Notes: generated from the sequence alone by a model not told the origin. Positions 28,201 to 53,000 are shown, counted from the first letter of the stretch. The stretch: 64,000 nucleotides of DNA from Amphiscolops sp. MND2022 (GCA_964187785.1 OZ076409.1:72976001-73040000); one strand, 5' to 3'. Made by a program: numbers and translations.

Positions 28201-31200
28201 ATGTACTCGCAAAAAGCACCGAACTACGGCCCTTACCTCCCCGAGCTACGCAGTATAGGGATTACATATTGGTTCCGACATTTTTATAGAGTTAAATCTT
28301 GGTAATCTGTCTGGATATGCCGAAAAATCAGCACGTGCCTTTTAATACCAAGTTGCTCACAACGACAATTATTTTATATCAACGCCCCCATATTTATCAA
28401 CGCCCCCCGTCCGTGGGCATGCCGAGGCATGCCCTTCGACGACCCGCACCAAAATATGCGTTAGCGCGGTAGCTGCTAGGTGCCGGTGTTTTTTACACAA
28501 TGGGGGAAGTTGCGCGGTTGGGGAGGGTCCCTGACGCGCTTCCGTGAGATCAGGTTTTTCAACTAGTGAAATCGACAAAGAAAATTGGGATCTCGTAAAC
28601 TAGCCATACGATTTGGCTGAAATTTGGCACACGTGCCCCCCTCGGCACGGTGAAGATGATTCCCTACTGACGTTTTGCTCGCTAAACATTTTTTGTTGAC
28701 CAAAATAACGGTTTTTGGGGTAAAATTTCCAACTTTTTTTGAATTTCATCTTATATCTCGCCACGGGTACACGCTAGCGCTTTCAAACCTTGCTAACGAA
28801 AGTTTGCAAACTGTCTCAGGAATGCTGTGTGAAATTTTCAGCTCATTCGGACTCAAACTCGAGGAGATATAGCGTTTTTCCGGAGCGGGGGGGTTTCATT
28901 TTTCTAACGGTCCAGCTTATCTTTGCCATTTTTTCAAAAATGTACTCGTCTAAAGGCCTCCCCTGGCCGGTTTTACTCCCAGCAAAACCATTTGGCCCTA
29001 AATACGGAGTTTCAGCGTTCCAGCATTCCCGGGCGAAAAGTTGTGGGACTTAGAAAATTTCAAAAATTTTCAAAAATTTTTTTTCCGTTATTTGGGCCCC
29101 CAAAGTGGGGGAAAAGACCCCCCAACCAGTAAAGCAAGTGAATGCATGTGCAAAGCCCTTGTTTGGACGAGAAAAATGCCGTTTAGAACGTCTTTTTATC
29201 TTGGCTCAACGTTGACTTATGACGTTTTGAAGGTGATGTTTGGAGGTGTAAAGCACGTGAATAGTAAACGTTATGAGTATTTATCTGATCTGAAAGCCAT
29301 TGAGATGCAATATGGTTTGCTCAAAACGTAATTCATTGCAGTTTGGCAATCAATCAACACCCTTTGTTGTCGTTTGATATACTTTTTTTTTGTTATAATT
29401 AAAAGTTTTGTGTATTTATTCATTTTTTTCTCATCAAATAACTTGGAACAGTTGAGTACATTCCATCCCCCCTTCCGGGGGAGATGAGAATGTACTCGCA
29501 AAAAGCACCGAACTACGGCCCTTACCTTCCCGAGCTACGCAGTATAAGGATTACATATTGGTTCCGACATTTTCATAGAGTTATATCTTGGTAATCTGTC
29601 TGGATATGCCGAAAAATCAGCACGTGCCTTTTAATACCAAGTTGCTCACAACGACAATTATTTTATATCAACGCCCCCATATTTATCAACGCCCCCCGTC
29701 CGTGGGCATGCCGAGGCATGCCCTTCGACGACCCGCACCAAAATATGCGTTAGCGCGGTAGCCGCTAGGTGCCGGTGTCTTTTTACACAATGGGGGAAGT
29801 TGCGCGGTTGGGGAGGGTCCCTGACGCGCTTCCGTGAGATCAGGTTTTTCAACTAGTGAAATCGACAAAGAAAATTGAGATCTCGTAAACTAGCCATACG
29901 ATTTGGCTGAAATTTGGCACACGTACCCCCCTCGGCACGGTGAAGATGATTTCCTACTGACGTTTTTCCCGCTAAACATTTTTTGTTGACCAAAATAACG
30001 GTTTTTGGGGTAAAATTTTCAACTTTTTTTAAATTTCATCTTATATCTCGCCACGGGTTTACGCTAGCGCTTCGAAATCTTGCTGACGAAACCTTGCAAA
30101 CTGTCTCAGGAATGCGGTGTGAAATTTTCAGCTCAATCGGACTCAAACTCGGGGAGATATAGCGTTTTTCCGGAGCGGGGGGGTTTCATTTTTCTAACGG
30201 TCCAGCTTATCTTTGCCATTTTTTCGAAAATGCACTCGCCTAAAGGCCTCCCCTGGCCAGTTTTATTCCCAGCAAAACCATTTGGCCCTAAATACGGAGT
30301 TTCAGCGTTCCAGCATTCCCGGGCGAAAAGTTGTGGGACTTAGAAAATTTCAAAAATGTTCAAAAAATTTTTTTTTCGTTATTTGGGCCCCCAAAGTGGG
30401 GGAAAAGACCCCCCAACCAGTAAAGCAAGTGAATGCATGTGCAAAGCCCTTGTTTAGAGGAGAAAAATGCCGTTTAGAACGTCTTTTTATCTTGGCTCAA
30501 AGTTGACTTATGACGTTTTGAAGGTGATGTTTGGAGGTGTAAAGCACGTGAATAGTAAACGTTATGAGTATTTATCTGATCTGAAAGCCATTGAGATGCA
30601 ATATGGTTTGCTCAAAACGTAATTCATTGCAGTTTGGCAATCAATCAACACCCTTTGTTGTCGTTTGACATACTTTTTTGTTGTTATAATGAAAAATTTT
30701 GTGTATTTATTCATTTTTTTCTCTTCAAATAGCTTGAAACAGTTGAGTACATTCCATCCCCCCCTTCCGGGGGAGATGAGAATGTACTCGCAAAAAGCAC
30801 CGAACTACGGCCCTTACCTTCCCGAGCTACGCAGTATAAGGATTACATATTGGTTCGGACATTTTCATAGAGTTAAATCTTGGTAATCTGTCTGGATATG
30901 CAGAAAAATCAGCACGTGCCTTTCAATACCAAGTTGCTTACAACGACAATTATTTTATATCAACGCCCCCATATTTATCAACGCCCCCCGTCCGTGGGCA
31001 TGCCGAGGCATGCCCTTCGACGACGTATACCAAGATATACATAAGCGCGGTAGCCGCTAGGTGCCGGTGTATTTTTACACAAAGGGGGATGTTGCGCGTG
31101 TGGGGAGGGTCCCTGACGCGCTTCCGTGGTTTCGGGTCTTCTAACCTATGATAGCGTGACACCTGACTTCGATCTCGTAAACTAGCCGTACGATTTGGCT

Positions 31201-34026
31201 GAAATTTGGCACACGTACCCCCCTCGGCACGGTGAAGATGATTTCCTACTGACGTTTTTCCCGCTAAACATTTTTTGTTGACCAAAATAACGGTTTTTGG
31301 GGTAAAATTTCGAACTTTTTTTAAATTTCATCTCATATCTCGCCACGGGTTTACGCTAGCGCTTCAAAACCTTGCTGACGAAAGCTTGCAAACTGTCTCA
31401 GGAATGCTGTGTGAAATTTTCAGCTCAATCGGACTTAAACTCGGGGAGATATAGCGTTTTTCCGGAGCGGGGGGGTTTCATTTTTCTAACGGTCCAGCTT
31501 ATCTTTGCCATTTTTTCGAAAATGCACTCGCCTAAAGGCCTCCCCTGGCCGGTTTTATTCCCAGCAAAACCATTTGGCCCTAAATACGGAGTTTCAGCGT
31601 TCCAGCATTCCCGGGCGAAAAGTTGTGGGACTTAGAAAAGTTCAAAAATTTTCAAAAAAAAATTTTTCCGTTATTTGGGCCCTCAAAGTGGGGGAAAAGA
31701 CCCCCCAACCAGTAAAGCAAGTGAATGCATGTGGAAAGCCCTTGTTTAGACGAGAAAAATGCCGTTTAGAACGTCTTTTTATCTTAACTTGACATTGACT
31801 TTTGTCGTTTTGAAGGTGACCGTTAGATACGGAAAATTGATGTTTTGAGTATTTATCCCATCTGAAAGCCATTGAGATACAACATGTTTTGCTCAAAACG
31901 TGTTTCATTGCAGTTTCGCTGTCCATTATCACCCTTTGGTGTCTTTTCACGTAATTTTCGTTTCTATAATAACAATTTTTTTGTGTATTTATTCATTTTT
32001 TTCTCATCAAATAACTTGAAACAGTTGAGTACATTCCATCTCCCTTCCCGGGGGAGATGAGAATGTACTCGCTAAAGGTCAGGAACTACGGTCTATATCT
32101 TCCACAACACAAAAGGGATTGCAAATGGTTTCAGTTGGTCGCAGAAAACTTCTTTTTGCCCTCTGTGACTCGACAAAATGAACGTTTCTTACTTACTTTG
32201 AAACTCAGCATACCACAACTCATCTCTAACGTCAGCGCCCCCCTACTTGCATCAACGCCCACCGTCCGTGGGCATGCCGAGGCATGCCCTTCGACGACGT
32301 ATACCAAGATATACCTGGAGCGCGGTAGCCGCTAGGTGCCCGGATTTCTATTCATTAAAGTATGTTGCGCGTGTGGGTAGGGCCCCGTGGCGCGCTCTTG
32401 TGTCCCTGTTCTCATAACTGCAATTTCCGGCAGCATTCTGAGCGATTTTCTAAACTATCCATACGATTCGGCTAAAATTTGGCATGTGAGTTCCTATGAC
32501 AGTTCTAAGAAACATTTCCTACTGGCGTTTTGCCCGGAAAATTTTTTTTGTTGACTTATAACGGTTTTTTTGGCCAAAAAATGCGATTTTTTCAAAAAAT
32601 TTTTTTTTCGGAGCCCATATCTTTTTTCAGGGTGACCGGAGCGGGACGCGTTAAACTGATTATAAACTCTACGGTTCATGGGCTTTACGGAGAACCTAGG
32701 CTCGTTTCGATCGGACAAATAGTCTTGGAGATATAACGGCATTTTTTGGGAATTTTTTGGAAATTTTTCTAACGGTCCAGCTTATCTTTGCCATTTTTTC
32801 GAAAATGTACTCGCCTAAAGGCCTCCCCTGGCCGGTTTTAATCCCAGCAAAACCATTTGGCCCTAAATACGGAGTTTCAGCGTTCCAGCATTCCCGGGCG
32901 AAAAGTTGTGGGACTTAGAAAAATTTCAAAATTTTTCAAAAAAAATTTTTCCGTTTTCCGCACTCCCCCCCGAGGGGAAAAGACCCCCCAACCAGTAATT
33001 TGAGTGAATTCATGTGGAAAGGCCATGTTTAGAGAAGAAAAATGCCGTTTAGATCGTCTTTTTATTTTAACCTGTCGTTGACTTATGTTGTTTTGAAGGT
33101 GATGTTTGGATGTGTGAAGCATGTGAAAAGGTAATTTATTGTGTCTTTAGCTCTTCTAAAAGTCATTGAGATACACGGTGTGTGACTCAGAACGTGTTTA
33201 ATTCTAATTTAGCAATGCATCAACACTTTTTTGTGTCTTTTGACTCTGTTTTAAAAAATTTTTCCGACTAAAATCAAAAATTATTTATAATTATTCACAT
33301 TTTTTTTCTGATCTCATGACTCCAAACAGTTGAGTACATTCCATCTCCCTTCACGGGGGAGATGAGAATGTACTCTTTAGAGACCAGGTACTACAGTACT
33401 TACCTTCCCCGAGCAACGCCCCATAAAAATTGCGTTTTGATCCAGATATTTTGACATAATTTTATCTTTGTAATTTGACTGGAAATGAAGAAAATGCCGC
33501 ACGTGCTCTTTTATATCAAGTATCTTAACAACGCCATCTCTTTTACGTCAACGCCCCATAGTTCACATCAACGCCCACCGTCCGTGGGCATGCCGAGGCA
33601 TGCCCTTCGACGACGTATACCAAGATATACTTCGAGCGCGTTAGCCTAGGTGGCGGGGGGCTGTCCCCAATAGAATATAGTGAGGTAGGGTAGGGTTCCC
33701 TACCGAACATTCAGTACTGAAAGACTCTTGTAGTATGAAAATTTTTCGATGTTTTGAGACCGATTTCGGATTCCACCCGTCAGAAGTTTATGATTTTTTG
33801 GCCCCCACCCAGATTTTGGGCACTGATCGCCCCCCACCAGGTTCCATACCCGTGGTTTCGTTGTGACGGGTACACGAGCGACCGTTAGGGGTCAATCAGG
33901 GGGTAAAATTTATGAAAGTGTGAATAACTTTTCCCCCCGTCGTTTTAGCAGGTCCGGTCACTAGTAAAGGTTTGTTGGGCATCATGCAGTGGGTACGGGG
34001 GGCCAAACAAAAATTTTCTATCATGC

Positions 34027-35220
34027 ACCGTTACGGACTTGGCCCCCCGCCCAAACCGCTATTTTACCGGAAATTGCACTTTTTGAACGGGAAGGAGTCG
34101 TCTGAGCGCGGAGTCGTTTGGTAATGTTTTGTAGAGCATCTGAAGACGTGGTGGGGGACATGTAGTTTGCCGACCCCAGTTTACCCCTCGGACGGGAAAT
34201 GACCGTTATGTTAGTTTTAAAATTGCCCCCCGTCAACTTTAACCGCTATTTCTGGTGTGAAGGAGTCGGAACAGCGTGTCGGGTGCTATATATCAAAAGT
34301 AGCTTTAAACAAGGACCTATCAGAAACATGTGGTTTGGGACCCTTTGAACGGACCCGTTAGCCGGAAATAGGGTGACCGCCGCCTTTTTTTGGTGTTAAA
34401 ACCGTAAAACGGGCATTAAAGTGAAATTATCTCGTGAACGCGTGGAGCAATCGTGTCCATCACTCCTACAAGGTTTCATACCCATGACATGGTGTCTTCA
34501 GGGGGGCAAACAGATCAGCGCTATCTATCACCGTTACGGACTTTGCCCCCCAGCCTAACCGCTATATTACCGGAAACTGCCCTTTTTGACCGGCAAGGAG
34601 TCGTCTGAGAGTGGAGTCGTTAAGTAATGTTTTGTAGAGCATCTAGAGACGTGTTGGGGGACATGTAGTTTGCCGACCCCTGTTTACCCCTCGGACGGGA
34701 AATGACCGTTATGTTAGTTTTAAAATTGCCCCCCGTCAACTTTAACCGCTATTTCTGGTGTGAAGGAGTCGGAATAGCGTGTCGGGTGCTACATATCAAA
34801 AGTAGCTTTAAACAAGGACCTATCAGAAACATGTGGTTTGGGACCCTTGGAACGGACCCGTTAGCCGGAAATAGGGTGACCGCCCCCTTTTTCTGCGGTT
34901 AAAATTGTAAAACGGGCATTGAAGTGGAATTATCTTGGAAACGCGTGGAGCTATAGTGTCCTTCACTACTACAAGGTTTCATACTCAAGATACGGTGCCT
35001 TCAGGGGGGAAAACAGATTACCGCTATATATCACCGTTACGGACTTGGCCCCCCAGCCTAACCGCTATGTTACCGGAAATGTCATTTTTTGAGCCAAAAG
35101 GGTTAGTCCCAGCGTGGGAACGTCAGGTAACTTTATGTAGAACTCAATGAGACGAGTTGGGGGATATGGTTTCAGTCACCCCCCGTTGACCCGTTAGACC
35201 GGAAACGACCGTTATGTAGT
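34027..35220 (+). repeat. Internal 503-bp tandem subrepeat (2 full copies plus a partial third) inside the longest unit
   Basis: ACCGTTACGGACTT(G/T)GCCCCCC starts at 34027, 34530 and 35033, and the sequence between these starts aligns by eye. Single homologous copies lie at ~36845-37321 and ~42425-42900. Confidence 0.9.
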
Positions 35221-35865
35221 GAAAAGTGTAATTTTTATACTTTTTGAAGGCCATTTAGGGCAGGAAGTATCGGTAATATGTCTTTGGACAGTATACAATG
35301 AAAGTTTTGGTGTGAAACAAGCAATCTGAAATATCCGTTATTATGATTCGGAAGTCACACTAACAGCGAAAATGACCGTTATGTAGTGAAAATTTTTTTC
35401 ACATTTTTTTTGCTTTCGATAGGTCCTTCAAGCCAAGAAGTAGCTGTATTAGGTCTTTGGCCACTTTATGATGATTGTGGTGTTGTGAGATGACCGTACG
35501 AACTTGACCTTTATAATGCCCCTGAAGTTGCTGCGGCACGAGAAATTTCAGAAAGTTTGTCTTTTCTGTGTTTTGTTGGAATAAACATTTAATTTCATTA
35601 AACCAATGTGCATTCAGGGTGTTTAGAAAGCTTCAAGAAAAGAATTTAATAGGAAACATGGCGGTGAGAAATAACAAATTGCCACGTAAATCCAACCCCC
35701 GTTGGGGAATAAATGTAATAAATTGTTTTGGAAGTGCCAATCGACGTGTATTTGCGGATCATAGCCACGGTATTGTCTATTCGTGTTTCTTTTTGAAGAC
35801 TTTGAACATTTTCACTTTATCAGCTTGAGGTTTTAACTCTATATGCATAATGACCGTTACAATAT

Positions 35866-35908
35866 GATAGCCCTCAAGTTGACCTTGTGTCAACTTGAAA
35901 GGGCTATC
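35866..35908. other. Type-2 hairpin
   Basis: GATAGCCCT-CAAGTTGAC-CTTGT-GTCAACTTG-AA-AGGGCTATC. This unit has no type-1 hairpin. Confidence 0.88.
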
Positions 35909-37960
35909 CTTTCACAACTGCGCAGCAACAGTGTGATTGAGTGATTTAGTTATTATCCAAGGCCAATTTGAACTTCAACAAGATTTTAACCACAATATTT
36001 AAAACTATTCATATGATTCTTTCAAAAGGGTAAATATTTAACTAATATTTGACAAAAAAACTCCAACCTTTAATTTGTGGACCGAATAGTAGGAAAACCA
36101 TGTTTCTTAACGTTGTTGGATGAAATTCAAAATGATGCTTTTAAAAGAATAACAATTCTTGACACTATATATTTTTTCTATTTTCCAATAAACTATTTTT
36201 CCAAAAGTCTATTTTTCCAATAAACATTGTTGATTGATGCCCATTCATAGTGACTGGAAAGTTTTACCAACTGTGGTGTTTTTTTTAATCAGAGGTGAAA
36301 CCGCTCCTTACCGTCGCATAATGTAATTCAAGCCGACGCCCACATGCCAACATCAACGCCCACCGTCCGTAGGCATGCCGAGGCATGCCTTTCGACGACG
36401 TATGCCAAATCACGCCCCTGCGAGGTCACTAAAGCGGTAGCGGCTAGGTGCGGGGGGGTAACCCCAACAAAGATATTGGAGGATTCGGGTAGGGTCCTGA
36501 ATCCGATCTTAGTACCGCCAGCTATCAGTAGAAAATTTCCCTCAAAAACCGGGATCTCGGGAACTAACCGTAGGATTTGAAAGTTGGAGCGGCCCCCACC
36601 AGATTTTCCCGAATAGATCGCCCCCCACCGGGCTCCATACCCCGGAAAATTTTTTTTTGGCCACACGGGCGACAGTTAGGGGGTCATTTTAGGGGTAAAA
36701 TTCATATTGGTCCATATAACTTTTTTCCTGTTGGTTTAAAAGTTTGGGAACCCTTCTAAAGGTTTTTCGACCATGTTGCAAGGGCTCCGGAGGTGCAAAC
36801 CAAATTTTTCTATCTTGAAGCTATCTCCAAGTACCCCCCCGCTCAAACCGTTATTTTTCCGGAAACGCAGGTTTTTGACCCGGAAGGAGTCGTCTGAGCG
36901 CGGGGTCGTTAGGTGATGTTTTGGGGACGGCCTTGAGACAAAGTGGGGGACAAGTAGTTTGCCAACCTCAATTTACCCCCCGGACGGGAAATGACCGTTA
37001 TATGAGCGTGAAAAATGCCCCCCTCCACGTTTTACCGCTATTTCCGGTGTGAAGGTGTGGGAGTAGCGCGTCGGGTGCCATATATCAAAAGTAGGTTTAG
37101 ACAAGGATCTATCAAAAACATGTGGTTTGGGACCCCCTGACCCAACCCGTTAGCGGGAAATGGGGCTTCCGCCTCCTTTTTTTTCGGTTAAAAACGGAAA
37201 ATGGGCATTGAGGGGTAAATATCTCGTGAACGCGTGGAGCTACGGTGTCCTTCACTACTACAAGGTTTCATACCCATGATATGGTGCCTTCAGGGGGGCA
37301 AACAGATTTCCGCTATCTATCACCGTTACGGACTTGGCCCCCCAGCCTAACCGCTAAGTGACCGGAAATGTCACTTTTTGAGCCCAAAGGGTCGGTCCCA
37401 GCCAGGGAACGTTAGATAACTTTTTGTAGTACTCATTGAGACGAGTTGGGGGACATAGTTTCAGTCACCCCCCGTTACCCCTTGTGACCGGAAATGACCG
37501 TTATGTGGGTAAAATTGGGATTTTTGTACTTTTTGAAGGGCAATTAGGTGCGGAAGGAGTGGTAATAGGTGCTTGGACACTATATGATGGAATGGAGGAC
37601 GTGAGGCGAACATTCAGACATAACCGTTATGTTGACCCTAAAGTCCCCCTGGTACCGTAAACGACCGGAAATGGTCAAATTTTGTGTCTATTGGGTACAA
37701 ATGTTTGGTATTTTGTAAATAAAAGTATCTATTAGGTGTTTCGACGGTCTGCAGTAGTGAACATAGTCATGAAACCTTGTCGGGGGGTAACGGTATATAG
37801 CACCGGAAGTCCAAAACGTTAGAGACGGGATAGGTTTTTTCGTTTTAAAATGTCTTTCGGCGTACTTTTGTCAACTAATATGGAATATTTTTTAAAATTA
37901 AAGTTTTTCCATATAGTTTCAGAGACTCCCAAACCTCAAACAACATAACCGTTACCTTAT

Positions 37961-38004
37961 GATAGCCTTTCAAGTTGGCCTGGTGTCAACTTGGAATGGC
38001 TATC
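37961..38004. other. Type-2 hairpin
   Basis: GATAGCCTTTCAAGTTGGC-CTGGT-GTCAACTTGGAATGGCTATC. Confidence 0.85.
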
Positions 38005-40097
38005 CTTCAAAAATCGTTGATCAAGTGTGTTTTTGGGTATGTTTGAATCATTTTAGAATCAATTAGAGCTTCAAGAAATGTTTGCCAACGACAAAAACTA
38101 TGTCGTGATGATTCCGTTATTAGAGTAATAGTTAACAAAATATTGATTAATTTGATTTTTTACATTTCAAAAGTGTCCTAAAAGCCAGAAAACCTCTTTA
38201 CCAAACAAATGGTATTGATTGGATTGTATATAACAGGTAATAAAAGTTCAAATTGATTATTACGTTTTATTATGTAAGCTGAAACGTCATATTATAGTTT
38301 AATTAACGTCAACGCCACATACTTTACACCAACGCCCACCGTCTGTGGGCATGCCGAGGCATGCCCTTCGACGACGTATACCAAATACATTTCATATCTA
38401 CACCCACCCGCGGTAGCAGCTAGGTGGAGGTTATTTTATAATAATTAAAGTGTTTTTTTCCGGAGTTTGTGGCTTTGGAAAAAACAAAAGGCGAGAAATT
38501 GGGCACTCCGGGCTGAACCGTATACACTCAAAATTCGCCCAATATTTATACGATCTCGAAACCCAGCCGTACGATTTGGCTGAAAATTTGCATGCGGCTA
38601 AAAAATCAGATTCTAAGAACTATTTCCTGCTGACATTTTTTTGAAATTTTTGTGTACGTTTCCCCCCCGCCCCCTAAAGGGGTCAATTTTCCCCAATTTT
38701 GCACTTATGAGTCAAATTCTCAAAACTGGTGGATCTGAGCGTATTCGCAGCGGAGACAACTTTTAACGAGCGCTCTTCAGTAGACCTTTTTGACTTTTTA
38801 CTTTGGTGGTAGGTTCACCCCCCAAGGAGGAAATGGCTTTTTTGTGACTTCCGGTCGAGACTTTTTTCACCCAAAAAATAGAAATAAGCCAGTTTTGAGC
38901 AGGAAGGAGTGGATTTGAAGTGTCTGTACCCTTCTAAAAATTTGTTGGGCTTGTAGCGATATATCTCATACCAAGTCTGGTTTTCACCCCCAAACCCCCC
39001 TTGGGACCAAAATTCACCCAAACTTTTTTACCTCTGTTTGTAGTTTTTTTTGCAAATTGTCGTCATTTCCATGGGTAAAGAGTTGAATTAGGGGCTCCTA
39101 ATAGGGTACCAATGTTCAAGTACACTTGCAGTGCAACTGAGTGACCCTTGTTGGGCCTCTCGTGTGCTCGGCAAGGACCGGAAGTGGTGTAAACCCCCCT
39201 TTTTTGACGTTTGTTGACCTTGAGTCTCGCGCTTAGATGACGTTTATGTCGCGCAAGTCCTACAAACCAGTATTCGGATGACACGCTAGCCAACTAGAGA
39301 GCAATACGGGAAACCATAACATACCGGAAGTAACCCTCCGTGACCGGAAGTTGTCATTTTTGGCCGGAAATGGTCCAAAACCTAGCGTAAAAGCAGTTTT
39401 TCTTTGCTTTTAAAGTCAACTTATTACAATTTTCAATCTGCGCGAGCTTGTCCTAAGGTTCGTTCTGTTGCCAGTGCACACTTTAACAAATATACATCTG
39501 TAAAATTTTCGCTATAATATCGTCGGAGAGAGAAATAACGGGTTTATGGGACTTTTTTCAAAAACGATAGTCTGTATCTGTCTTTTTTACCCAACGTTTT
39601 TCAACAGTAGAACCACAGGGGTTAGTCTCTGCCCAAATATATGCCTAACAAAACCAGTTCACCCATTGGTTGCAATTTGAGCGTTCTAGCTTTGCCAGGT
39701 CACAAGTTATGAGACTTGAAAAGTTTCCAAAATTTTTTCCGAAAATTTGTTTCTAAACTTCATGTCTCCCAAAGTTAAGAATCTTCCGCACAACTAGGAT
39801 TGCAAGTGAATGCATGTGGTAGAACCTTTAAATGGAGAGAAAATATCCGTATAGAACGTCTCTTTATCGTATTTTGACGTCGAGAGATGTTGCTTTGAAT
39901 GCCAGCTTGATAAGACGTCGAGTAGTAACAGTGTGTAAATGGAACATATGTCTCAACAAATACTCATCGGAATACATGCGATGAAACCCAATTACCCTCA
40001 ATTTCAGTTGCCTAGTACAACAACGTCTTCCAAGGAACTTTTAATCTTTTTGAGAAGTGTTGAAGTCATCATTAAATTCAGTTAGCAAGAAACAATT

Positions 40098-40142
40098 GAG
40101 TACATTCTCATCTCTCCCCATCGGGTGAGATGAGAATGTTCT
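40098..40142. other. Divergent type-1 hairpin in long unit 38420-40610
   Basis: GAGTACATTCTCATCTCTCCCATCGGGTGAGATGAGAATGTTCT. Confidence 0.8.
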
Positions 40143-40328
40143 TGCTAAAAGCCAGGTACTACTGCCCAATTTTGTTTTATTGCGACGCATTCGGTGCTTT
40201 AGCACATAGATACTTTTATTCCGTCTCACGTTTTGTTTACACTCTGATTTGTTGTTATAAATTTCTCGTCATTACTTTACATAAACTAACTACAATCGTG
40301 AACTTCAACGTCATAGCCAAATTCATTT

Positions 40329-40382
40329 AGACGCCCACCTTTCCGTGGGTATGCCGAGGTATGCCTTTCGAAGACGTATGTC
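40329..40382. other. Degenerate extra core, 198 bp upstream of an intact core
   Basis: ACGCCCACCTTTCCGT-GGGTATGCCGAGGTATGCCT-TTCGAAGACGTATG. It is not followed by CTAGGTG. Confidence 0.85.
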
Positions 40383-41651
40383 AAAACGCAAATGCGATAA
40401 AAAAAGGTGCTGATATTCGGAAACAGTGACAAACAAATTGACTATTTGATATTTGGTAGGTTTTTATATGGAACTTACACATCACTGACATTTCAAAACA
40501 TTCCAGCTGACGGCCACATACAAACATCAACGCCCACCGTCCGTGGGCATGCCGAGGCATGCCCTTCGACGACGTATGGCAAATACCTTCATCGACGCCT
40601 CCACATTCCCCTAGGTGGTTGGGGCGGTCCCCAGAACGCACAAGGAGGCGCGGGGAGGGTCCTGCGCCGACGTAGAATAATTTCATAAAATACTAGTATC
40701 CTACATGGGTGTTTTAGAAGCGATTTTGGAATCTAACCGTACGATTTGGATAATTTTTTGCATGCGGCCATAACTCGAAATTCTAAGAACTTTTTCCTAC
40801 TGTCATTTTCCCCGCAAATTGTTTTTTGTTGACTTATGGCCGAAAAACCGGAAATAACGTCCTTTTTAGACGTTATATCCGAAGTGTTGTCATAACTTTT
40901 TTCCAGGGCATGCTAGCGTTCTTGTTCACTTTTACACTTAGTTGCAGCATCTCAAAATACAACTGGTGGAAAATTTTGGTTGCATTCGGATCACCCCCCA
41001 CCGAGATAGAAGGGTTCCCCCCTCCAGTTTTTTCCCCCAAAATTGCGAAAATACCAATTTTGAGCATGAAGCCGTGGATTTAGCGAATCCTCACCCCCCT
41101 GATGTTTTGTCGGACGTATTAGGGCTAATCTGATTACATGTGTGGTTTTCACCCCCAACCCCCCCCTTGGACCGGAAATGACACTTTTTTGTGTTTTTTG
41201 GCAGAATTTAGCCTTTTTCATTATTAGGCAGTCGTTTTAGGGACTCCTAGCAGGATATTGAAATTGAAATACAACCTGATCACAACCCAGTGACAACATG
41301 TTGGCCACTTGGAGGTATCATCATGACCGGAAGTGGGGTCAACCCCCCTTTTTGTGACCGCTTTTTGACCTTGTGCACCAAAATGCCAACATCTTGAGGC
41401 CTAATGAGGCATTCAAATCTGTACAAAGATAAAATGTTAGACAACCGAAGTCCCGCAAGATCTTCAGCATATACCGGAAGTTACCCCCCATGACCGGAAG
41501 TTACCCAATGTGACCGGAAATGGTCCAAAAATTAATGTAAAGTTGAATTTTTCTCTATTTCAAGACCACTTCATTGAACATTTTCAATCTCAAAACTAGC
41601 GTACTGGCTTGTTTTGCTGAATTTATGGAAATTGATGAGCTCTATCGCACC

Positions 41652-41696
41652 CGATAGCCTTCGAAGTTGACCTTGCGTCAACTTTGGAGGCTATCG
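41652..41696. other. Type-2 hairpin
   Basis: CGATAGCCTTCGAAGTTGAC-CTTGC-GTCAACTTTGGAGGCTATCG. Confidence 0.85.
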
Positions 41697-43559
41697 ATAA
41701 AGAAAAATGAACAACAAAGTACATTGTTGCTCTCGTTTTTTTCCCGTTGTTTTTCCTCAAACATTCTTGAGACATATACATGGCTGTTAGTTGAAATCAA
41801 TATTTAGCCCATGTTATAGCTGGAGCAGCGAAGCGTTACACAGACTAGTGTGGTTTTGAAATCACACTATTTAAATTGACAACTGACCGTCTTAGTCAAC
41901 TCCACACATTCATACCAACGCCCACCGTCTGTGGGCATGCCGAGGCATGCCCTTCGACGACGTATGACGAATCCATTCCAACGACACCCGCAGTCCTCAG
42001 CTAGGTGGTCGGGGTTTTCTCCCCACCTTTATTTGCGAGCGCGGGAGACGGGTCCTGTCGCGAGCCTTAGATACCAAAAATAGCCTATCCGCGACCGGGT
42101 CAAAAAAATGCGATCTCGAAAACTAGCCGTACGATTCGGCTGAAATTTGGCACACGGCTTCCTATAACAGTTCTAAGAAACATTTACTACTGACGTTTTG
42201 CTGGCAAAAATCGAAAAGTGGGTCAAAATAACGGTTTTTGGGGTAAAAAGTAGCGTTTTTTTGAAAATTTTGCATTTCACAGCCAATTACTCGGAAATGG
42301 TCGATCCAGCGCAGTAACGCCTTGCTGATTTATTGTTGGGCACGTCAAGAAGCGTACGTACACAAATTTTGGTCCATATCGGACTGAAACTTGGGGAGAT
42401 ATTAACGGTAGTTTGGGGGTTTCAAACCGCTATTTTACCGGAAATTGCACTTTTTGACCGGGAAGGAGTTGTCTGAGTGCGGGGTCGTCTGGTAATGTTT
42501 TGTAGAGCATCTGGGGACGTAGTGGGGGACATGTAATTTAATGACCCCGGTTAACCCCTCGGACGGGAAATGACCGTTATGTGGGTTTTAAATGTGGCCC
42601 CCGCCAATTTTCCCCGTTATTTCCGGTGTGAAGGATTGGTAGTAGCGCGTCGGGTGCCTTATATCAAAAGTACGTTTAGACAAGGACCTATTGGAAACAT
42701 GTGGTTTGGGACCCTTTGAACGGACCCGTTAGCCGCTAATGGGGTGACTGCCTCCTTTTTTTGGGGGTAAAACCGTAAAACGGGCATTGAAGTGAAATTA
42801 ACTCGTGAACGCGTGGAGCTATCGTGTCCTTCACTACTACAAGGTTTCATACCCATGATATGGTGCCTTCAGGGGGGCGAACAGATTTCCGCTATCTATC
42901 ACCGTTACGGACTTGGCCCCCCAGCCTAACCGCTATGTGACCGGAAATGTCACTTTTTGAGCCCAAAGTGTCGGTCCCAGCGTGGCAACGTTAGGTAACC
43001 TATTGTAGTACACATTGAGACGAGTTGGGGGATTTAGTTTCAGTCACACCCTGTTGGCCCGTTAGGTCGGAAATGACCGTTATGTAGTGAAAAATGGGAT
43101 TTTTATAGTTTTTGAAGGCCATTTCGGGCAGGAAGGAGGGGTAATATGACTTTGGACACCATATGATGGAAGACGTGAAGTGTGACCAGCATTCCGGATT
43201 AACCGTTATGATGACCCGGAAGTCCCCCTGGCCCCGGAAATGACCAAAAAAATGTAACATTTTGTGTTTTTTGATTAAAAATGTTTGTTATTTAACCGAA
43301 TAAAGTACATGTTAGGTGTTTCAATTTCTTCCAGAGGTGAATATAGTCCAATTACATGGTGGGGGGTAACGGTATATTGCCCCGGAAGTCCAACCCGTTG
43401 GGTCTGAGTATGTTTTTCGGGTTTTAAAATGTGTCAAAACGTACTTTTGTGTAATAAATCTCTATTGTAGGCTAATAAGGACCATTTTTGAAGAGTTTAA
43501 ATTTTTTCATAGTAGTTTGTGGAACACCAAAAACTTAAATAACATAACCGTTATAATTT

Positions 43560-43603
43560 GATAGCCTTTCAAGTTGGCCTTGTGTCAACTTGGAAAGGCT
43601 ATC
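43560..43603. other. Type-2 hairpin
   Basis: GATAGCCTTTC-AAGTTGGC-CTTGT-GTCAACTT-G-GAAAGGCTATC: 11-bp outer stem, one extra base in the 3' arm, 8-bp inner stem. Confidence 0.88.
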
Positions 43604-44016
43604 CTTCAAGACTCATGCAACAAAGAAGTTTTTGGGTACATTTGTAATGCTTTAGTGTCAATTAGAGTATCAACAAGAGTATACCAAGCACTAAAACTAT
43701 GTCTAGTTTTCGTTATTAGGATATTAGTTTCCTGAATATTTGTCGGAAATGCTTTTTTAAATCTCTTTTAATGTGGTCTAAATACTCTGAAAACACTTTA
43801 TCGAACCAATTTTCTTGGATGAACCTTAGTAACAATACTAAAAATCGTAGACAACCTTGCTTCGTTTAAATATTTGAAGCTGAAACCGCACCTTACCGTT
43901 GCTCAAACTTCAACCCGACGCCCCATAGCATACATCAACGCACATCGTCTGTGGGCATGCCGAGGCATGCCCTTCGACGACGTATGCCAAATACCTTTAA
44001 CCCGACGCCCGCAGTC

Positions 44017-47000
44017 CTGGGTGCCGGGATTTCCATTCGATAAGGAATTCTGCGCGTGTGGGTAGGGCCCCTGGCGCGCTCCTGTGTTTTCGGTTTTCCT
44101 ACTCCTAAATAGACCCCCTGAATTCCGGGATCTCCTAAACTATCCATACGATTTGGCTGAAATTTGGCACACGTACCCCCCTCGGCACGGTGAAGATGAT
44201 TTCCTACTGACGTTTTTCCCGCTAAACATTTTTTGTTGACCAAAATAACGGTTTTTGGGGTAAAATTTTGAACTTTTTTTAAATTTCATCTTATATCTCG
44301 CCACGGGTACACGCTAGCGCTTCCAAACTTTGCTGACGAAAGTTTGCAAACTGTCTCAGGAATGCTGTGTGAAATTTTCAGCTCAATCGGACTTAAACTC
44401 GAGGAGATATAGCGTTTTCCCGGAGCGGGGGGGTTTCAATTTTCTAACGGTCCAGCTTATCTTTGCCATTTTTTCGAAAATGCACTCGCCTAAAGGCCTC
44501 CCCTGGCCAGTTTTATTCCCAACAAAACCATTTGGCCCTAAATACGGAGTTTCAGCGTTCCAGCATTCCCGGGCGAAAAGTTGTGGGACTTAGAAAAGTT
44601 CAAAAATTTTCAAAAAAAATTTTTTCCGTTATTTGGGCCCTCAAAGTGGGGGAAAAGACCCCCCAACCAGTAAAGCAAGTGAATGCATGTGGAAAGCCCT
44701 TGTTTAGACGAGAAAAATGCCGTCTAGAACGTCTTTTTATCTTAACTTGACATTGACTTTTGTCGTTTTGAAGGTGACCGTTAGATACGGAAAATTGATG
44801 TTTTGAGTATTTATCCCATCTGAAAGCCATTGAGATACAACATGTTTTGCTCAAAACGTGTTTCATTGCAGTTTTGCTGTCCATTATCACCCTTTGGTGT
44901 CTTTTCACGTAATTTTCGTTTCTATAATAACAATTTTTTTGTGTATTTATTCATTTTATTCTCATCAAATAACTTGAAACAGTTGAGTACATTCCATCTC
45001 CCTTCCCGGGGGAGATGAGAATGTACTCGCTAAAGGTCAGGAACTACGGTCTATATCTTCCACAACACAAATGGGATTGCAAATGGTTTCTGTTTGTCGC
45101 AGAAAACTTCTTTTTGCCCTCTGTGACTCGACAAAATGAACGTTTCTTACTTACTTTGAAACTCAGCATACCACAACTCATCTCTAACGTCAGCGCCCCC
45201 CTACTTGCATCAACGCCCACCGTCCGTGGGCATGCCGAGGCATGCCCTTCGACGACGTATACCAAGATATACCTGGAGCGCGGTAGCCGCTAGGTGGCCG
45301 TGTCTTTTCGACGTGCTTTTGCATCGAGGAGTGGGTAGGGCCCCGCGACGACCTAGAAGAATTGGATGCTCACCGAAACGTGCAGAATTCTACGAGATCT
45401 CATAGTTTGAGCCATACGATTTTTCTGAAATTTGGCATGTGGCCTGGAATTGGTGAGTAGGTAAAACGTGTAGAAGGTAATTTTTCCCAAATTCCACTGT
45501 GAGAGGAGATATGGGCAAATAACGGACCCAAAAATGGCAAAAATGCACATTTTTCAACTTTGTCAGCCAATATCTCTTTTCCAGGTGCCCGTAGCGTTCC
45601 GCACGTGGACATCAATATTGCTCAGCGCTGTTGGAGGAGTGCGTGGACAAATTTTGGTTTAAATCGGACTAAAACTTGACGAGAAATTAACGGTTTTTTG
45701 GGCGTTTCCGGGGTAAATTTTTTAACGGTCCAGCTTATCTTTGCCATTTTTTCGAAAATGTACATGCCTAAAGGCCTCCCCCTGGCCGAATTTACTCCCA
45801 GCAAACCCATTTGGCCCTAAATACGGAGTTTCAGCGTTCCAGCATTCCGGGGCGGAAAGTTGTGGGACTTGAAAAAATTTCAAAATTTTTTCAAAAATTT
45901 TTTTTCCCGTTTTCCGGGCCCCCAATGAAGGGGAACGACCCCCCAACCAGTATTTTGAGTGAATTCATGTGGAAAGCCCATGTTTGGAGGAGAAAAATGC
46001 CGTTTAGCACATCTTTTTATCTTAACTTGACATTGACTTATGACGTTTTGAATGTGATGTTAGGATATATGAAGCATGTTAAAAGTTGAAGTTTTGAGTC
46101 TTTATCTCATCGGAAAACCATTGAGATACAAGCAGTTTTGCTAAAAACGATTTTCATTGTAGGTTAGCAGAGTATTAGTACACTTTGATGTCATTTGAGT
46201 ATATTTTTCTTCTATATAATAACTGTTTTTATGTATTTATTCCAATTTATCTCATCTTTTAACATCAAGCAGTTGAGTACATTTCATCTCCCTTTCGGGG
46301 GAGATGAGAATGTACTCGCTAAAAACCTAATGCTATGGCGCCAATGTTTGGATGGGAAGTTTTCTATGCTTTGAAAAAAGTTATTTTTAATTACTTGATT
46401 TTTTAAAACAATAATTAACATGAAGTACATTACTTGCTCCTACTACTACCACCATACATCTCTAACGTCAACGCCCCCTGCTTGCATCAACGCCCCATCG
46501 TCCGTGGGCATGCCGAGGCATGCCCTTCGACGACGTATGCCAAATGCCCAGTGCCACGCAGTCTTTTCCCGCTAGGTGGCCGTGTCTTTTCGACGTGCTT
46601 TTGCATTGAGGAGTGGGTAGGGCCCCGCGACGACCTAGAAGAATTGGATGCTCACCGAAACGTGCAGAATTCTACGAGATCTCATAGTTTGAGCCATACG
46701 ATTTTTCTGAAATTTGGCATGTGGCCTGGAATTGGTGAGTAGGTAAAACGTGTAGGAGGTGATTTTTCCCAAATTCCACTGTGAGACGAGATATGGGCAA
46801 ATAACGGTCCCAAAAATGGCAAAAATGCACTTTTTTCAACTTTGTCAGCCCATATCTCTTTTCCAGGTGCCCGTAGCGTTCCGCACGTGGACATCAATAT
46901 TGCTCAGCGCTGTCGGAGGAGTGCGTGGACAAATTTTGGTTTAAATCGGACTTAAACTTGACGAGAAATTAACGGTTTTTTGGGCGTTTCCGGGGTAAAT

Positions 47001-50000
47001 TTTTTAACGGTCCAGCTTATCTTTGCCATTTTTTCGAAACTGTACATGCCTAAAGGCCTCCCCCTGGCCGAATTTACTCCCAGCAAACCCATTTGGCCCT
47101 AAATACGGAGTTTCAGCGTTCCAGCATTCCGGGGCGGAAAGTTGTGGGACTTGGAAAAATTTCAAAATTTTTTCAAAAAATTTTTTTCCCGTTTTCCGGG
47201 CCCCCAATGAAGGGGAACGACCCCCCAACCAGTATTTTGAGTGAATTCATGTGGAACGCCCATGTTTGGCGGTGAAAAATGCCGTTTAGAACATCTTTTT
47301 ATCTTAACTTGACATTGACTTATGACGTTTTGAATGTGATGTTAGGATATATGAAGCATGTTAAAAGTTGAAGTTTTGAGTCTTTATCTCATCGGAAAAC
47401 CATTGAGATACAAGCATTTTTGCTAAAAACGATTTTCATTGTAGGTTAGCAGAGTATTAGTACACTTTGATGTCATTTGAGTATTTTTTTCTTCTATATA
47501 ATAACTGTTTTTATGTATTTATTCCAATTTATCTCATCTTTTAACATCAAGCAGTTGAGTACATTTCATCTCCCTTTCGGGGGAGATGAGAATGTACTCG
47601 CTAAAAACTTAATGCTATGGCGCCAATGTTTGGATGGGAAGTTTTCTATGCTTTGAAAAAAGTTATTTTTAATTACTTGATTTTTTAAAACAATAATTAA
47701 CATGAAGTACATTACTTGCTCCTACTACTACCACCATACATCTCTAACGTCAACGCCCCCTGCTTGCATCAACGCCCCATCGTCCGTGGGCATGCCGAGG
47801 CATGCCCTTCGACGACGTATGCCAAATGCCCAGTGCCACGCAGTCTTTCCCCGCTAGGTGGCCGTGTCTTTTCGACGTGCTTTTGCATTGAGGAGTGGGT
47901 AGGGCCCCGCGACGACCTAGAAGAATTGGATGCTCACCGAAACGTGCAGAATTCTACGAGATCTCATAGTTTGAGCCATACGATTTTTCTGAAATTTGGC
48001 ATGTGGCCTGGAATTGGTGAGTAGGTAAAACGTGTAGAAGGTAATTTTTCCCAAATTCCACTGTGAGACGAGATATGGGCAAATAACGGTCCCAAAAATG
48101 GCAAAAATGCACTTTTTTCAACTTTGTCAGCCCATATCTCGTTCCCAGGTGCCCGGAGCGGGACGCGTTAAGCTGATTATAAACTCTAGGGTGTTGAGGC
48201 TGTACGGGGAAGTCAGGCCCGTTCCGATCGGACTTGTAGTCTTGGAGAAATAACGGTATTTTTGGGGAACCTTTTCTAACGGTCCAGCTTATCTTTGCCA
48301 TTTTTTCGAAAATGTACTCGCCTAAAGGCCTCCCCCTGGCCGAATTTACTCCCAGCAAAACCATTTGGCCCTAAATACGGAGTTTCAGCGTTCCAGCATT
48401 CCCGGGCGAAAAGTTGTGGGACTTAGAAAAATTTCAAAAATTTTCAAAAATTTTTTTCCGTTTTCCGCCCTCCCCCCCCGAGGGGAAAAGACCCCCCAAC
48501 CAGTAATTTGAGTGAATGCATGTCAAAAGCCCTTGTTTTGACGAGAAAAATACCGTTTAGAACATCTTTTTATCTTGACTCAACGTTGACTTATGACGTT
48601 TTGAATGTGATGTAAGGATGTACGAGGCATGTGATAAGTTGATGTTTTGAGACTTTATCTCATATGAAAGCGGTTGAGATGCAAGCTGTCCTGCTCAAAA
48701 CGTCTTTCGTTATAATTTTCCAGTGCACCAATACCCTTTGGTGTCATATAAACATACTTTTTGTCGATATATTAACAATTTTAATGTATTTATTCCAATT
48801 TTTATTATCTTATAACTCAAAACAGTTGAGTACATTTCATCTCCCTTTCGGGGGAGATGAGAATGTACTCGCTAAAGACCTAGCGCCATGACCAAAAGTT
48901 TGAAACCCACGTTTTTTATCTTCTTACAGACTTGTTTTTGTATTTTTTCGGAATTTTTTAAAAATTAATATACTTGAAATACATTACTTGACTTTACTAC
49001 TACAATCCACCTTCAACGTCAACGCCCCCCTGCTTGCATCAACGCCCACCGTCCGTGGGCATGCCGAGGCATGCCCTTCGACGACGTATGCCAAATGCCC
49101 AGTGCCACGCAGTCATTATCGCTAGGTGGCCGTGTCTTTTCGACGTGCTTTTGCATTGAGGAGTGGGTAGGGCCCCGCGACGACCTAGAAGAATTGGATG
49201 CTCACCGAAACGTGCAGAATTCTACGAGATCTCATAGTTTGAGCCATACGATTTTTCTGAAATTTGGCATGTGGCCTGGAATTGGTGAGTAGGTAAAACG
49301 TGTAGAAGGTAATTTTTCCCAAATTCTACTGTGAGAGGAGATATGGGCAAATAACGGACCCAAAAATGGCAAAAATGCACATTTTTCAACTTTGTCAGCC
49401 AATATCTCTTTTCCAGGTGCCCGTAGCGTTCCGCACGTGGACATCAATATTGCTCAGCGCTGTCGAAGGAGTGCGTGGACAAATTTTGGTATAAATCGGA
49501 CTTAAACTTGACGAGAAATTAACGATTTTTTGGGCGTTTCCGGAGTAAATTTTTTAACGGTCCAGCTTATCTTTGCCATTTTTTCGAAAATGTACATGCC
49601 TAAAGGCCTCCCCCTGGCCGAATTTACTCCCAGCAAACCCATTTGGCCCTAAATACGGAGTTTCAGCGTTCCAGCATTCCGGGGCGGAAAGTTGTGGGAC
49701 TTGGAAAAATTTCAAAATTTTTTCAAAAATTTTTTTTCCCGTTTTCCGGGCCCCCAATGAAGGGGAACGACCCCCCAACCAGTATTTTGAGTGAATTCAT
49801 GTGGAAAGCCCATGTTTGGAGGAGAAAAATGCCGTTTAGCACATCTTTTTATCTTAACTTGACATTGACTTATGACGTTTTGAATGTGATGTTAGGATAT
49901 ATGAAGCATGTTAAAAGTTGAAGTTTTGAGTCTTTATCTCATCGGAAAACCATTGAGATACAAGCAGTTTTGCTAAAAACGATTTTCATTGTAGGTTAGC

Positions 50001-53000
50001 AGAGTATTAGTACACTTTGATGTCATTTGAGTATATTTTTCTTCTATATAATAACTGTTTTTATGTATTTATTCCAATTTATCTCATCTTTTAACATCAA
50101 GCAGTTGAGTACATTTCATCTCCCTTTCGGGGGAGATGAGAATGTACTCGCTAAAAACCTAATGCTATGGCGCCAATGTTTGGATGGGAAGTTTTCTATG
50201 CTTTGAAAAAAGTTATTTTTAATTACTTGATTTTTTAAAACAATAATTAACATGAAGTACATTACTTGCTCCTACTACTACCACCATACATCTCTAACGT
50301 CAACGCCCCCTGCTTGCATCAACGCCCCATCGTCCGTGGGCATGCCGAGGCATGCCCTTCGACGACGTATGCCAAATGCCCAGTGCCACGCAGTCTTTTC
50401 CCGCTAGGTGGCCGTGTCTTTTCGACGTGCTTTTGCATCGAGGAGTGGGTAGGGCCCCGCGACGACCTAGAAGAATTGGATGCTCACCGAAACGTGCAGA
50501 ATTCTACGAGATCTCATAGTTTGAGCCATACGATTTTTCTGAAATTTGGCATGTGGCCTGGAATTGGTGAGTAGGTAAAACGTGTAGGAGGTAATTTTTC
50601 CCAAATTCCATTGTGAGAGGAGATATGGGCAAATAACGGTCCCAAAAATGGCAAAATTGCACTTTTTTCAACTTTGTCAGCCCATATCTCGTTCCCAGGT
50701 GCCCGGAGCGGGACGCGTTAAGCTGATTATAAACTCTAGGGTGTTGAGGCGGTACGGTGAACTTGGGCCCGTTCCGATCGGACTTGTAGTCTTGGAGAAA
50801 TAACGGTATTTTTGGGAATTTTTTTCTAACGGTCCAGCTTATCTTTGCCATTTTTTCGAAAATGTACTCGCCTAAAGGCCTCCCCCTGGCCGAATTTACT
50901 CCCAGCAAAACCATTTGGCCCTAAATACGGAGTTTCAGCGTTCCAGCATTCCGGGGCGGAAAGTTGTGGGACTTGGAAAAATTTCAAAATTTTTTCAAAA
51001 AATTTTTTTCCCGTTTTCCGGGCCCCCAATGAAGGGGAACGACCCCCCGACCAGTATTTTGAGTGAATTCATGTGGAACGCCCATGTTTGGAGGAGAAAA
51101 ATGCCGTTTAGCACATCTTTTTATCTTAACTTGACATTGACTTATTTCGTTTTGAATGTGATGTTAGGATATATGAAGCATGTTAAAAGTTGAAGTTTTG
51201 AGTCTTTATCTCATCGGAAAACCATTGAGATACAAGCAGTTTTGCTAAAAACGATTTTCATTGTAGGTTAGCAGAGTATTAGTACACTTTGATGTCATTT
51301 GAGTATTTTTTTCTTCTATATAATAACTGTTTTTATGTATTTATTCCAATTTATCTCATCTTTTAACATCAAGCAGTTGAGTACATTTCATCTCCCTTTC
51401 GGGGGAGATGAGAATGTACTCGCTAAAAAACTAATGCTTTGGCGCCAATGTTTGGATGGGAAGTTTTCTATGCTTTGAAAAAAGTTATTTTTAATTACTT
51501 GATTTTTTAAAACAATAATTAACATGAAGTACATTACTTGCTCCTACTACTACCACCATACATCTCTAACGTCAACGCCCCCTGCTTGCATCAACGCCCC
51601 ATCGTCCGTGGGCATGCCGAGGCATGCCCTTCGACGACGTATGCCAAATGCCCAATGCCACGCAGTCTTTCCCCGCTAGGTGCCGGGATTTCCATTCGAT
51701 AAGGAATTCTGCGCGTGTGGGTAGGGCCCCTGGCGCGCTCCTGTGTTTTCGGTTTTCCTACTCCTAAATAGGCCCCCTGAATTCCGGGATCTCCTAAACT
51801 ATCCATACGATTTGGCTGAAATTTGGCACACGTACCCCCCTCGGCACGGTGAAGATGATTCCTTACTGACGTTTTGCCCGCTAAACATTTTTTGTTGACC
51901 AAAATAACGGTTTTTGGTGGAAAATTTTCAACTTTTTTTAAATTTCATCTTATATCTCGCCACGGGTCAACGCTAGCGCTTCCAAACCTTGCTAACGAAA
52001 GTTTGCAAACTGTCTCAGGAATGCTGTGTGAAAATTTCAGCTCAATCGGACCTGAACTCGAGAAGATATAGCGTTTTTCCGGAGCGGGGGGGTTTCATTT
52101 TTCTAACGGTCCAGCTTATCTTTGCCATTTTTTCGAAAATGCACTCGCCTAAAGGCCTCCCCTGGCCGGTTTTATTCCCAGCAAAACCATTTGGCCCTAA
52201 ATACGAAGTTTCAGCGTTCCAGCATTCCCGGGCGAAAAGTTGTGGGACTTAGAAAATTTCAAAAAATTTCAAAAAAATTTTTTTCCGTTATTTGGGCCCC
52301 CAAAGTGGGGGAAAAGACCCCCCAACCAGAAAAGCAAGTGAATGCATGTGCCAAGCCCTTGTTTAGAGGAGAAAAATGCCGTTTAGAACGTCTTTTTATC
52401 TTGGCTCAACGTTGACTTATGACGTTTTGAAGGTGATGTTTGGAGGTGTAAAGCAAGTGAATAGTAAACGTTATGAGTATTTATCTGATCTGAAAGCCAT
52501 TGAGATGCAATATGGTTTGCTCAAAACGTAATTCATTGCAGTTTGGCAATCAATCAACACCCTTTGTTGTCGTTTGACATACTTTTTTGTTGTTATAATA
52601 AAAAATTTTGTGTATTTATTCATTTTTTTCTCATCAAATAACTTGAAACAGTTGAGTACATTCCATCCCCCCCTTCCGGGGGAGATGAGAATGTACTCGC
52701 AAAAAGCACCGAACTACGGCCCTTACCTTCCTGAGCTACGCAGTATAAAGATTGCATATTGGTTCCGACATTTTGATAGAGTTAAATCTTGGTAATCTGT
52801 CTGGGTATGCAGAAAAACCAGCACGTGCTTTTTTATACCAAGTTGCTTACAACGACAATTATTTTATATCAACGCCCCCATATTTATCAACGCCCCCCGT
52901 CCGTGGGCATGCCGAGGCATGCCCTTCGACGACGTATACCAAGATATGTTCGAGCGCGTTAGCCTAGGTGCCCGGATTTCTATTCATTAAAGTATGTTGC

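Follow-up and report, generated by a model that had tools for sequence, protein, structure and literature searches.

The DNA analysed here, referred to below as the window, is a 64,000-nucleotide stretch from Amphiscolops sp. MND2022 (GCA_964187785.1 OZ076409.1:72976001-73040000), located at 72.98-73.04 Mb of a 104-Mb contig in a 1.07-Gb genome. It contains 47 junctions that delimit 46 complete units in head-to-tail order, and these units are almost certainly non-autonomous Helitron-like elements. Each unit spans from a GTG(G/C) start to a CT[A/G/T]G end, and the junctions read CTAG followed by GTG in 45 cases and CTGG followed by GTG in two; CTTG and CTCG ends also occur in loci fetched from the genome. 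The array extends past both sides of the window (flanking loci L037-L040), and the terminal palindromic core of the units has 2600 exact copies in the genome. No coding capacity was found in the window units, in which all open reading frames (ORFs) were shorter than 140 aa, and the window gave 0 Rfam matches and 0 tRNA matches. In the window, minus-strand occurrences of the core were misplaced echoes of its palindrome and were disregarded. The arrays represent a real feature, i.e., Helitron-like elements of which the targeting is non-canonical and resembles that of IS91, and which carry interchangeable internal hairpins of at least four classes.

Each of the 46 complete window units contained one hairpin, of type 1 in 42 units and of type 2 in four, and none had both or neither, as claimed in the initial annotation made from the sequence. 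The four type-2 hairpins, which it had placed at 35866, 37961, 41652 and 43560, were all located (Table 1), and their folding as DNA gave -13 to -18 kcal/mol with z-scores of -5.4 to -8.1, where 0 of 200 shuffles were as good. The hairpins lie within the unit, at a distance of about 250-1000 nt from its 3' end, and have stems of about 19 bp with conserved arms and variable loops. The two types had been described as unrelated in sequence, and this was confirmed for one representative pair, in which 16.7% of 2000 symmetric shuffles scored as well as the real alignment, so that a common origin was undetectable. Two further statements held in part. The type-2 hairpins had been assigned to four long units; the four carriers were confirmed, but a fifth long unit (2191 bp) has type 1, and the unit with the hairpin at 41653 is just 1390 bp. 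Extra bases in the 3' arm, which had been noted as usual, are not required, since the hairpin at 41653 and several type-1 variants have no bulge.

Table 1. Coordinates of the array and of selected elements, termini and hairpins, counted from the first nucleotide of the window; the assignment of the units as elements has the strength given in the text.
Feature	Position	Strand	Remarks
Complete non-autonomous Helitron-like elements (46), head-to-tail	260..63234	+	CTAG-GTG and CTGG-GTG junctions
Non-autonomous element, 2798 bp	33650..36447	+	delimited by junctions
Non-autonomous element, 1976 bp	36448..38423	+	delimited by junctions
Non-autonomous element, 2191 bp	38424..40614	+	degenerate extra core near 40340
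Non-autonomous element, 1390 bp	40615..42004	+	delimited by junctions
Non-autonomous element, 2016 bp	42005..44020	+	delimited by junctions; CTGG end
5' terminus	42005..42070	+	GTG(G/C) start; conserved G-rich box 35-80 nt inside
3' terminus	43946..44020	+	conserved palindromic core, short GC-rich stretch, terminal CT[A/G/T]G
Type-2 internal hairpin	35866..35908	+	
Type-2 internal hairpin	37961..38004	+	
Type-2 internal hairpin	41653..41695	+	no bulge; one more stem pair reaches 41652 (span listed to 41696)
Type-2 internal hairpin	43560..43603	+	
Type-1 hairpin, variant	40098..40143	+	in long unit 38424-40614
Type-1 internal hairpin, typical	44985..45028	+	~965 nt from 5' end of 1273-bp unit

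The same arrays hold units of 12-20 kb that encode a protein of 2200-2600 aa with a Helitron Rep, a Pif1 helicase and a C-terminal GIY-YIG domain (RepHel). PF14214 and PF05970 were above the cut-off in both proteins scanned, and the HUH and YxxxY motifs aligned across 14 sequences. With 400 aa of Rep as the query, 110 matches were obtained, many of them in open frames longer than 2100 aa, and the matches were clustered on the plus strand at 70.5-76.5 Mb of contig C1. The C-terminus of RepHel matched SLX1 structure-specific nucleases (E 1.5e-7). In one copy on the minus strand (L041:1554-1900) the GIY-YIG motif is apparently intact and the closest solved relatives are SLX1, and in another locus (L032:5989-6600) the domain is split off as a separate ORF. 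For a second ORF, an RPA-like fold is predicted (predicted local distance difference test, pLDDT, 82; best Foldseek E 4.6e-5), with low template-modelling scores that limit the assignment to the fold family. In one autonomous group, a 220-aa ORF lies between RepHel and the RPA-like gene (L029:5163-5828, minus strand; L050:3174-3830, plus strand); it had no Pfam match and is SGNH-like by eye only. An RPA-like ORF of the array family was also observed just past an array end (L009:6258-7262, minus strand), with no RepHel seen nearby.

On the 5' side, up to about 0.75-1.5 kb of a short unit is sequence that the autonomous elements also have, and the 3' core is common to both; for example, the 5' 1.5 kb in the family of the 2798-bp window element is a 96% match to the autonomous element a53. 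The whole 3' terminus, i.e., the core plus CT[A/G/T]G, is common to the autonomous elements. The assignment of the short units to non-autonomous Helitron-like elements follows from the presence of both ends in the RepHel elements as well. The 5' terminus would be the nick/start end and the 3' terminus the terminator end.

For the Rep region, 616 relatives were obtained at 50% clustering. GIY-YIG was detected in 14 of 19 long relatives scanned (E<=0.001), and DUF6570 was absent from two proteins of the arrays and from 19/19 relatives scanned. The genome also holds dispersed Helitrons that are HLE1-like (HLE, Helitron-like element) or bear DUF6570, and none of the 42 genome matches of DUF6570 was at array-clade places. 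In a Rep tree, 16 array-clade rows were split from seven HLE1-like and six HLE2-like rows of the same genome with a Shimodaira-Hasegawa-like approximate likelihood ratio test (SH-aLRT) value of 100, in a quick, unrooted tree with long branches that omits 11 database relatives lacking the selection motif and in which the HLE labels are our own Pfam-based assignment without curated references. No relative was found among viral contigs. Two metagenome contigs (L129 and L130) carry a distant RepHel and GIY-YIG element, of which the protein is about 30% identical, with several opposite-strand ORFs; the element ends were not found in these contigs. HELIANO reports unclassified Helitron clusters (PMC11417382, section 23), and the array clade may have been seen earlier among them, without its ends. 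In the literature searched, with Repbase, subscription journals and the HELIANO supplements outside the search, we found no account of these termini, of this clade or of internal hairpins of non-autonomous Helitrons.

The insertion target was read from the flanks of the elements. Element ends of one type abutted another element in 1261 cases, and were not followed by GTG in 48. Among the latter, T was at +2 in 47/48 and C was at +1 in none. Thirty-eight of the 48 were fetched for flank reading, and the clear host-flanked 5' ends, taken from these and from loci fetched before, followed CT[A/T/G]G in 14 of 15 cases and GTCC in one, with T at position 2 in 15/15; this count is weakened by the omission of 18 of the 38 host-flanked loci, in which neither a 5' end nor a core could be detected (many loci were decayed or truncated), and of four ambiguous older ends. 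The target rule is CT[A/T/G]G followed by [G/A/T]T, with insertion 3' of the tetranucleotide. One insertion lies in a tRNA-like repeat, of which 11/11 empty copies were uninterrupted across the site, and hence no duplication had occurred there. The left CTTG and right CTAG at two loci (L096 and L118) likewise exclude a target duplication. A Crypton-like 6-bp repeat or a 4-bp duplication was rejected, because the tetramers on the two sides are not the same and the base at +1 is not constant. The tRNA-like repeat is abundant (L095, L132-L142; 661 candidates) and contains a CTAG target, with one insertion.

An element end followed by GT satisfies this rule, and therefore new copies would land behind old ones; by repeated insertion behind earlier copies, arrays would be built. 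The 1261:48 ratio may also owe something to local amplification and to selection against insertions that disrupt genes. Tandem arrays of Helitrons are known, and are usually ascribed to concatemers (PMC11934779, PMC12001565). In the present genome, all of 175 standard units differed from one another. Neighbouring units were uncorrelated, with an adjusted mutual information (AMI) of -0.01 to 0.09 in 124 pairs, whereas the modules within one unit were linked (AMI 0.40-0.93 in 165 units). The arrays are therefore not simple concatemers, and satellite amplification, concatemer formation and unequal crossing-over were each rejected as the main source of their order. The most tightly linked segments in the unit were those flanking type 1 (AMI 0.93), by which the hairpin was ruled out as a crossover hot spot. 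Type 1 starts exactly at the end of the homology to the autonomous element a82. It was also considered as a free mini-element, and the two isolated matches checked were both situated in copies of the same 5' module that had decayed. In the window, otherwise similar units have exchanged their first 100 nt and the tail after the core; 32 head types and 36 tail types were counted among 165 units, which suggests recombination within conserved blocks.

Mostly same-strand arrays of multi-megabase size, with many intact RepHel copies, occupy about 70.4-76.5 Mb of C1, and such arrays are candidate centromeric or subtelomeric domains. Further arrays were observed at 102-104 Mb of C2, at 2.5-3.9 Mb of C3, and at 3.5 and 38 Mb of C1, and two arrays of opposite orientation meet at L004:5075-7441. 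At three loci (L021:6439-7585, minus strand; L075:773-786; L123), the end lies 13-78 nt further out, at a new CT[T/G]G, which is consistent with terminator bypass or with insertion just downstream of the end. A solo element breaks the coding region of a Gypsy-type long terminal repeat retrotransposon (L001:3816-5066).

The catalogue of segments between junctions comprised 285 entries, grouped in 109 clusters, from both the window and the fetched loci, which are a non-random sample. The rule of exactly one type-1 or type-2 hairpin held for 243 of the 267 non-coding segments. Three segments had two hairpins, and their lengths and cores revealed missed junctions; 21 had neither. Eighteen of these 21 form a class of 1.03-1.15 kb, in which the sole conserved internal island is another hairpin (class 3), about 250-270 nt from the element end. 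Two more are dimers of this class, and the last one (3.07 kb) contains a fourth hairpin class. The coding elements did not follow the rule either, as 17 of 18 segments longer than 12 kb had none of types 1-3, and in the remaining one a missed junction had joined an autonomous element to a short unit. The hairpins thus fall into at least four classes, mutually unrelated and confined to non-autonomous families, and the two specificity classes proposed initially could not be upheld; families n25 and n15, which share 1.3 kb of the 5' region, carry different classes (type 1 and type 2, respectively). When strong folding was scored without any motif, the best hairpin in the last kb was at or below -12 kcal/mol in 25/26 non-autonomous representatives, 0/15 autonomous ones and 4/39 host windows. 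Classes 3 and 4, together with some type-2 copies, escaped a strict hairpin finder and were found by alignment and window folding. Over the whole genome, there were 2169 matches to one type-1 arm and 163 to one class-3 arm; the type-2 pattern was matched 2016 times, with some hairpins matching it on either strand.

Between families with unalignable flanks, the hairpins are islands of conservation. The identity of the hairpin was 0.89, as compared with 0.61-0.68 for the flanks, and for class 3 the values were 0.76 and 0.58-0.63. Class 3 showed double changes at 6/13 pairs in eight sequences (0/500 shuffles), and so the covariation that had been proposed as a check was observed in this class, but types 1 and 2 were nearly invariant. 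The plus strand was favoured by type 2 (11 G-T against 0 A-C) and by class 3 (7/8), and plus-strand GNA tip loops were present in class 3 (7/8) and class 4. C-GNA-G loops are unusually stable in single-stranded DNA (ssDNA). The arms matched 15 autonomous elements at 13-15 of 19-20 letters, which is about the shuffle level, and targeting of these elements by the arms was rejected for this reason.

From these results, the hairpins are very probably kept by selection on the element. The chance that they are read as ssDNA is about even, and a function specifically in priming appears rather doubtful. Our preferred, but tentative, reading is that they act in cis as an ssDNA signal once the plus strand has been peeled off, and that the likeliest role of this signal would be to help prime the second strand of short elements. 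The structure-read signal suggested by the initial annotation retains support from the HUH RepHel context, the conserved islands and the covariation of class 3, but not from the integron attC and IS200/IS605 sites to which it had been likened. In the proposed mechanism, RepHel would nick the 5' GTG end and peel the plus strand, terminate at the 3' CTAG, and insert the element 3' of the tetranucleotide. Every element end would be a potential target, and stacking behind old copies would give shuffled arrays. The release of short elements as ssDNA would precede the default lagging-strand priming, and families that acquired any strong hairpin of 42-48 nt upstream of the terminator would be favoured. 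Since autonomous copies lack the hairpins, these are not obligatory end signals of the transposase.

Several observations weigh against the reading as an ssDNA signal. Class 4 occurs in one family only, with three identical copies, and strong hairpins are also present in two autonomous families, at 2.4-3.0 kb from the end. Type 2 showed double changes at 3/20 pairs (19 of 31 variants), two of which are outside the core stem, and type 1, among 44 variants, only at the outer positions 1-2; these and the other wobble and covariation counts come from related, non-independent families, with structures derived from the same sequences, and are suggestive only. Types 1 and 2 vary too little for real covariation, and sequence-specific binding therefore fits them as well. 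Type 1 has no strand bias (5 G-T against 6 A-C), and it is on the minus strand that its tips are rich in purines. Eukaryotic primase is not known to need a special signal. Lagging-strand synthesis at the donor is favoured in the Helraiser study (PMC5876387).

An unlikely alternative, though the next in order, is that the hairpins act as RNA, in a short transcript from the autonomous-like 5' region, which is a possible promoter, and serve as a small-RNA precursor, a stability element or an anti-silencing decoy. The start of type 1 exactly where the a82 homology stops would agree with this, and so would the conserved arms with variable loops, the plus-strand G-U pairs of type 2 and the good folding of all four classes as RNA. 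However, stems of about 19 bp that lack a lower stem are short for Drosha (the stem of a microRNA precursor is about 33 bp), and GNA triloops are a feature of DNA rather than RNA. The window gave no Rfam match, and the shuffle-level likeness of the arms to the 15 autonomous elements also speaks against an RNA function. The near-invariant arms and the strand neutrality of type 1 would also fit dyad sites in double-stranded DNA, or cruciforms, with the SLX1-like GIY-YIG domain or a host factor, e.g., a centromeric one, as the protein that binds or cuts them. The match of the RepHel C-terminus to SLX1 and the extent of the arrays, which cover at least 70.4-76.5 Mb of C1, favour such sites, and Helitrons are associated with centromeres elsewhere (PMC13404089). 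This explanation seems less probable again, because class 3 preserves pairing and not sequence, the tight linkage across type 1 does not allow a crossover point there, and autonomous copies of the same arrays have no such sites.

The location of type 1 at a module junction raises another explanation, that the hairpins are neutral fold-back scars of internal deletions, kept symmetrical by self-templated repair. Inverted repeats can indeed self-correct. We regard this as improbable, because each class is retained in families whose flanks do not align, the arms were not derived from the autonomous sequences examined, and strong hairpins mark 25/26 non-autonomous families as compared with 4/39 host windows. 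The conserved mismatches and bulges are also unlike an outcome of self-repair. Among the four explanations, the ssDNA cis-signal is ranked above the RNA hairpin, the duplex or cruciform site and the neutral scar, in this order.

Helraiser moves the plus strand only and needs double-stranded circles, whereas ssDNA circles were inactive and were not converted; the authors leave the priming of the second strand unresolved (PMC5876387). The conversion of Helitron ssDNA to an integration-ready double-stranded circle is thus a question to which the hairpins may be relevant. Four natural, unrelated hairpins, present in non-autonomous copies only, provide ready-made swap and compensation tests, with intact transposases in the same genome. 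An IS91-like target equal to the element's own end gives a second route to tandem arrays, by repeated insertion and not by concatemers, and an IS91-like Helitron links the eukaryotic and bacterial rolling-circle transposons. Such elements would escape finders based on TC...CTRR or on insertion between T and T. In a broader and rather speculative picture, which we consider unlikely as a whole, the arrays belong to a third, widespread Helitron group, with RepHel fused to an SLX1-like GIY-YIG, whose IS91-style tetranucleotide targeting leads to insertion behind its own end and to multi-megabase, possibly centromeric, arrays, and its non-autonomous parasites acquired a eukaryotic single-strand origin, making the active double-stranded circle, at least four times independently.

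The hairpins at attC sites and at IS200/IS605 ends are bulged, similar in size to the array hairpins, and flank the cleavage site. The array hairpins differ from them in being internal, without a fixed bulge, absent from autonomous copies and not crossover points, and the analogy drawn in the initial annotation fails on these grounds. IS91 elements are on the scale of 1.8 kb. IS91 inserts beside CTTG or GTTC, and its far end is cleaved at CTCG (bioRxiv 10.1101/2025.01.24.634351). The array elements share with this family a tetranucleotide with T at position 2, a similar far end, subterminal palindromes and the lack of duplication. However, IS91 is bacterial and has no fused helicase, whereas the array elements are eukaryotic, with autonomous copies of 12-20 kb in megabase arrays; in place of a helicase-less Y2 TnpA, the Rep is fused to Pif1, and no Y2_Tnp match was found in the two proteins scanned. 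Rolling-circle plasmids use a single-strand origin for the second-strand step (PMC5714925). The array hairpins are likened to the single-strand origins of such plasmids and phages by the proposed role only, i.e., host priming of the displaced strand, and the priming enzymes there are bacterial; no single-strand origin has been described for Helitrons in the literature searched. Replitrons are also eukaryotic HUH transposons with the left end 3' of a short target, but they have a Y1 Rep without helicase, terminal direct repeats and an RG target (PMC10288648), which differ from what was found here.

The Helitron-like superfamily is characterized by a HUH Rep-Pif1 fusion, termini common to autonomous and non-autonomous copies, and no target duplication, all of which were found in the array elements. 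HLE1 elements have TC...CTRR ends and insert between A and T, and HLE2 elements insert between T and T (PMC11417382, section 4). With HLE2 (Helentron, Helitron2, proto-Helentron and FoHeli), the array elements share RepHel, and some database relatives of the array clade have OTU, but they have no DUF6570, do not insert between T and T, and end in CTAG (PMC11417382, PMC5148889). Short terminal inverted repeats of the HLE2 type were not seen in the ends read by eye. One Sphagnum HLE2 family has a captured GIY-YIG, and FoHeli1/2 have a longer target, TNAT (PMC11417382, PMC5148889). The likeness to HLE1 and Helraiser includes the Y2 Rep with Pif1 helicase, the RPA-like second gene, the 3' palindrome followed by CTAG (CTRR in all window junctions, as CTAG in 45 and CTGG in two), the lack of target duplication, both ends common to non-autonomous copies, and tandem arrays (PMC11417382, PMC4778049, PMC5876387). 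Unlike HLE1 and Helraiser, the array elements start with GTG and not TC, insert at CT[A/T/G]G followed by [G/A/T]T and not between A and T, have a fused GIY-YIG domain, appear on a separate Rep branch in the quick tree, form arrays of shuffled families, and carry an extra internal hairpin only in their non-autonomous copies.

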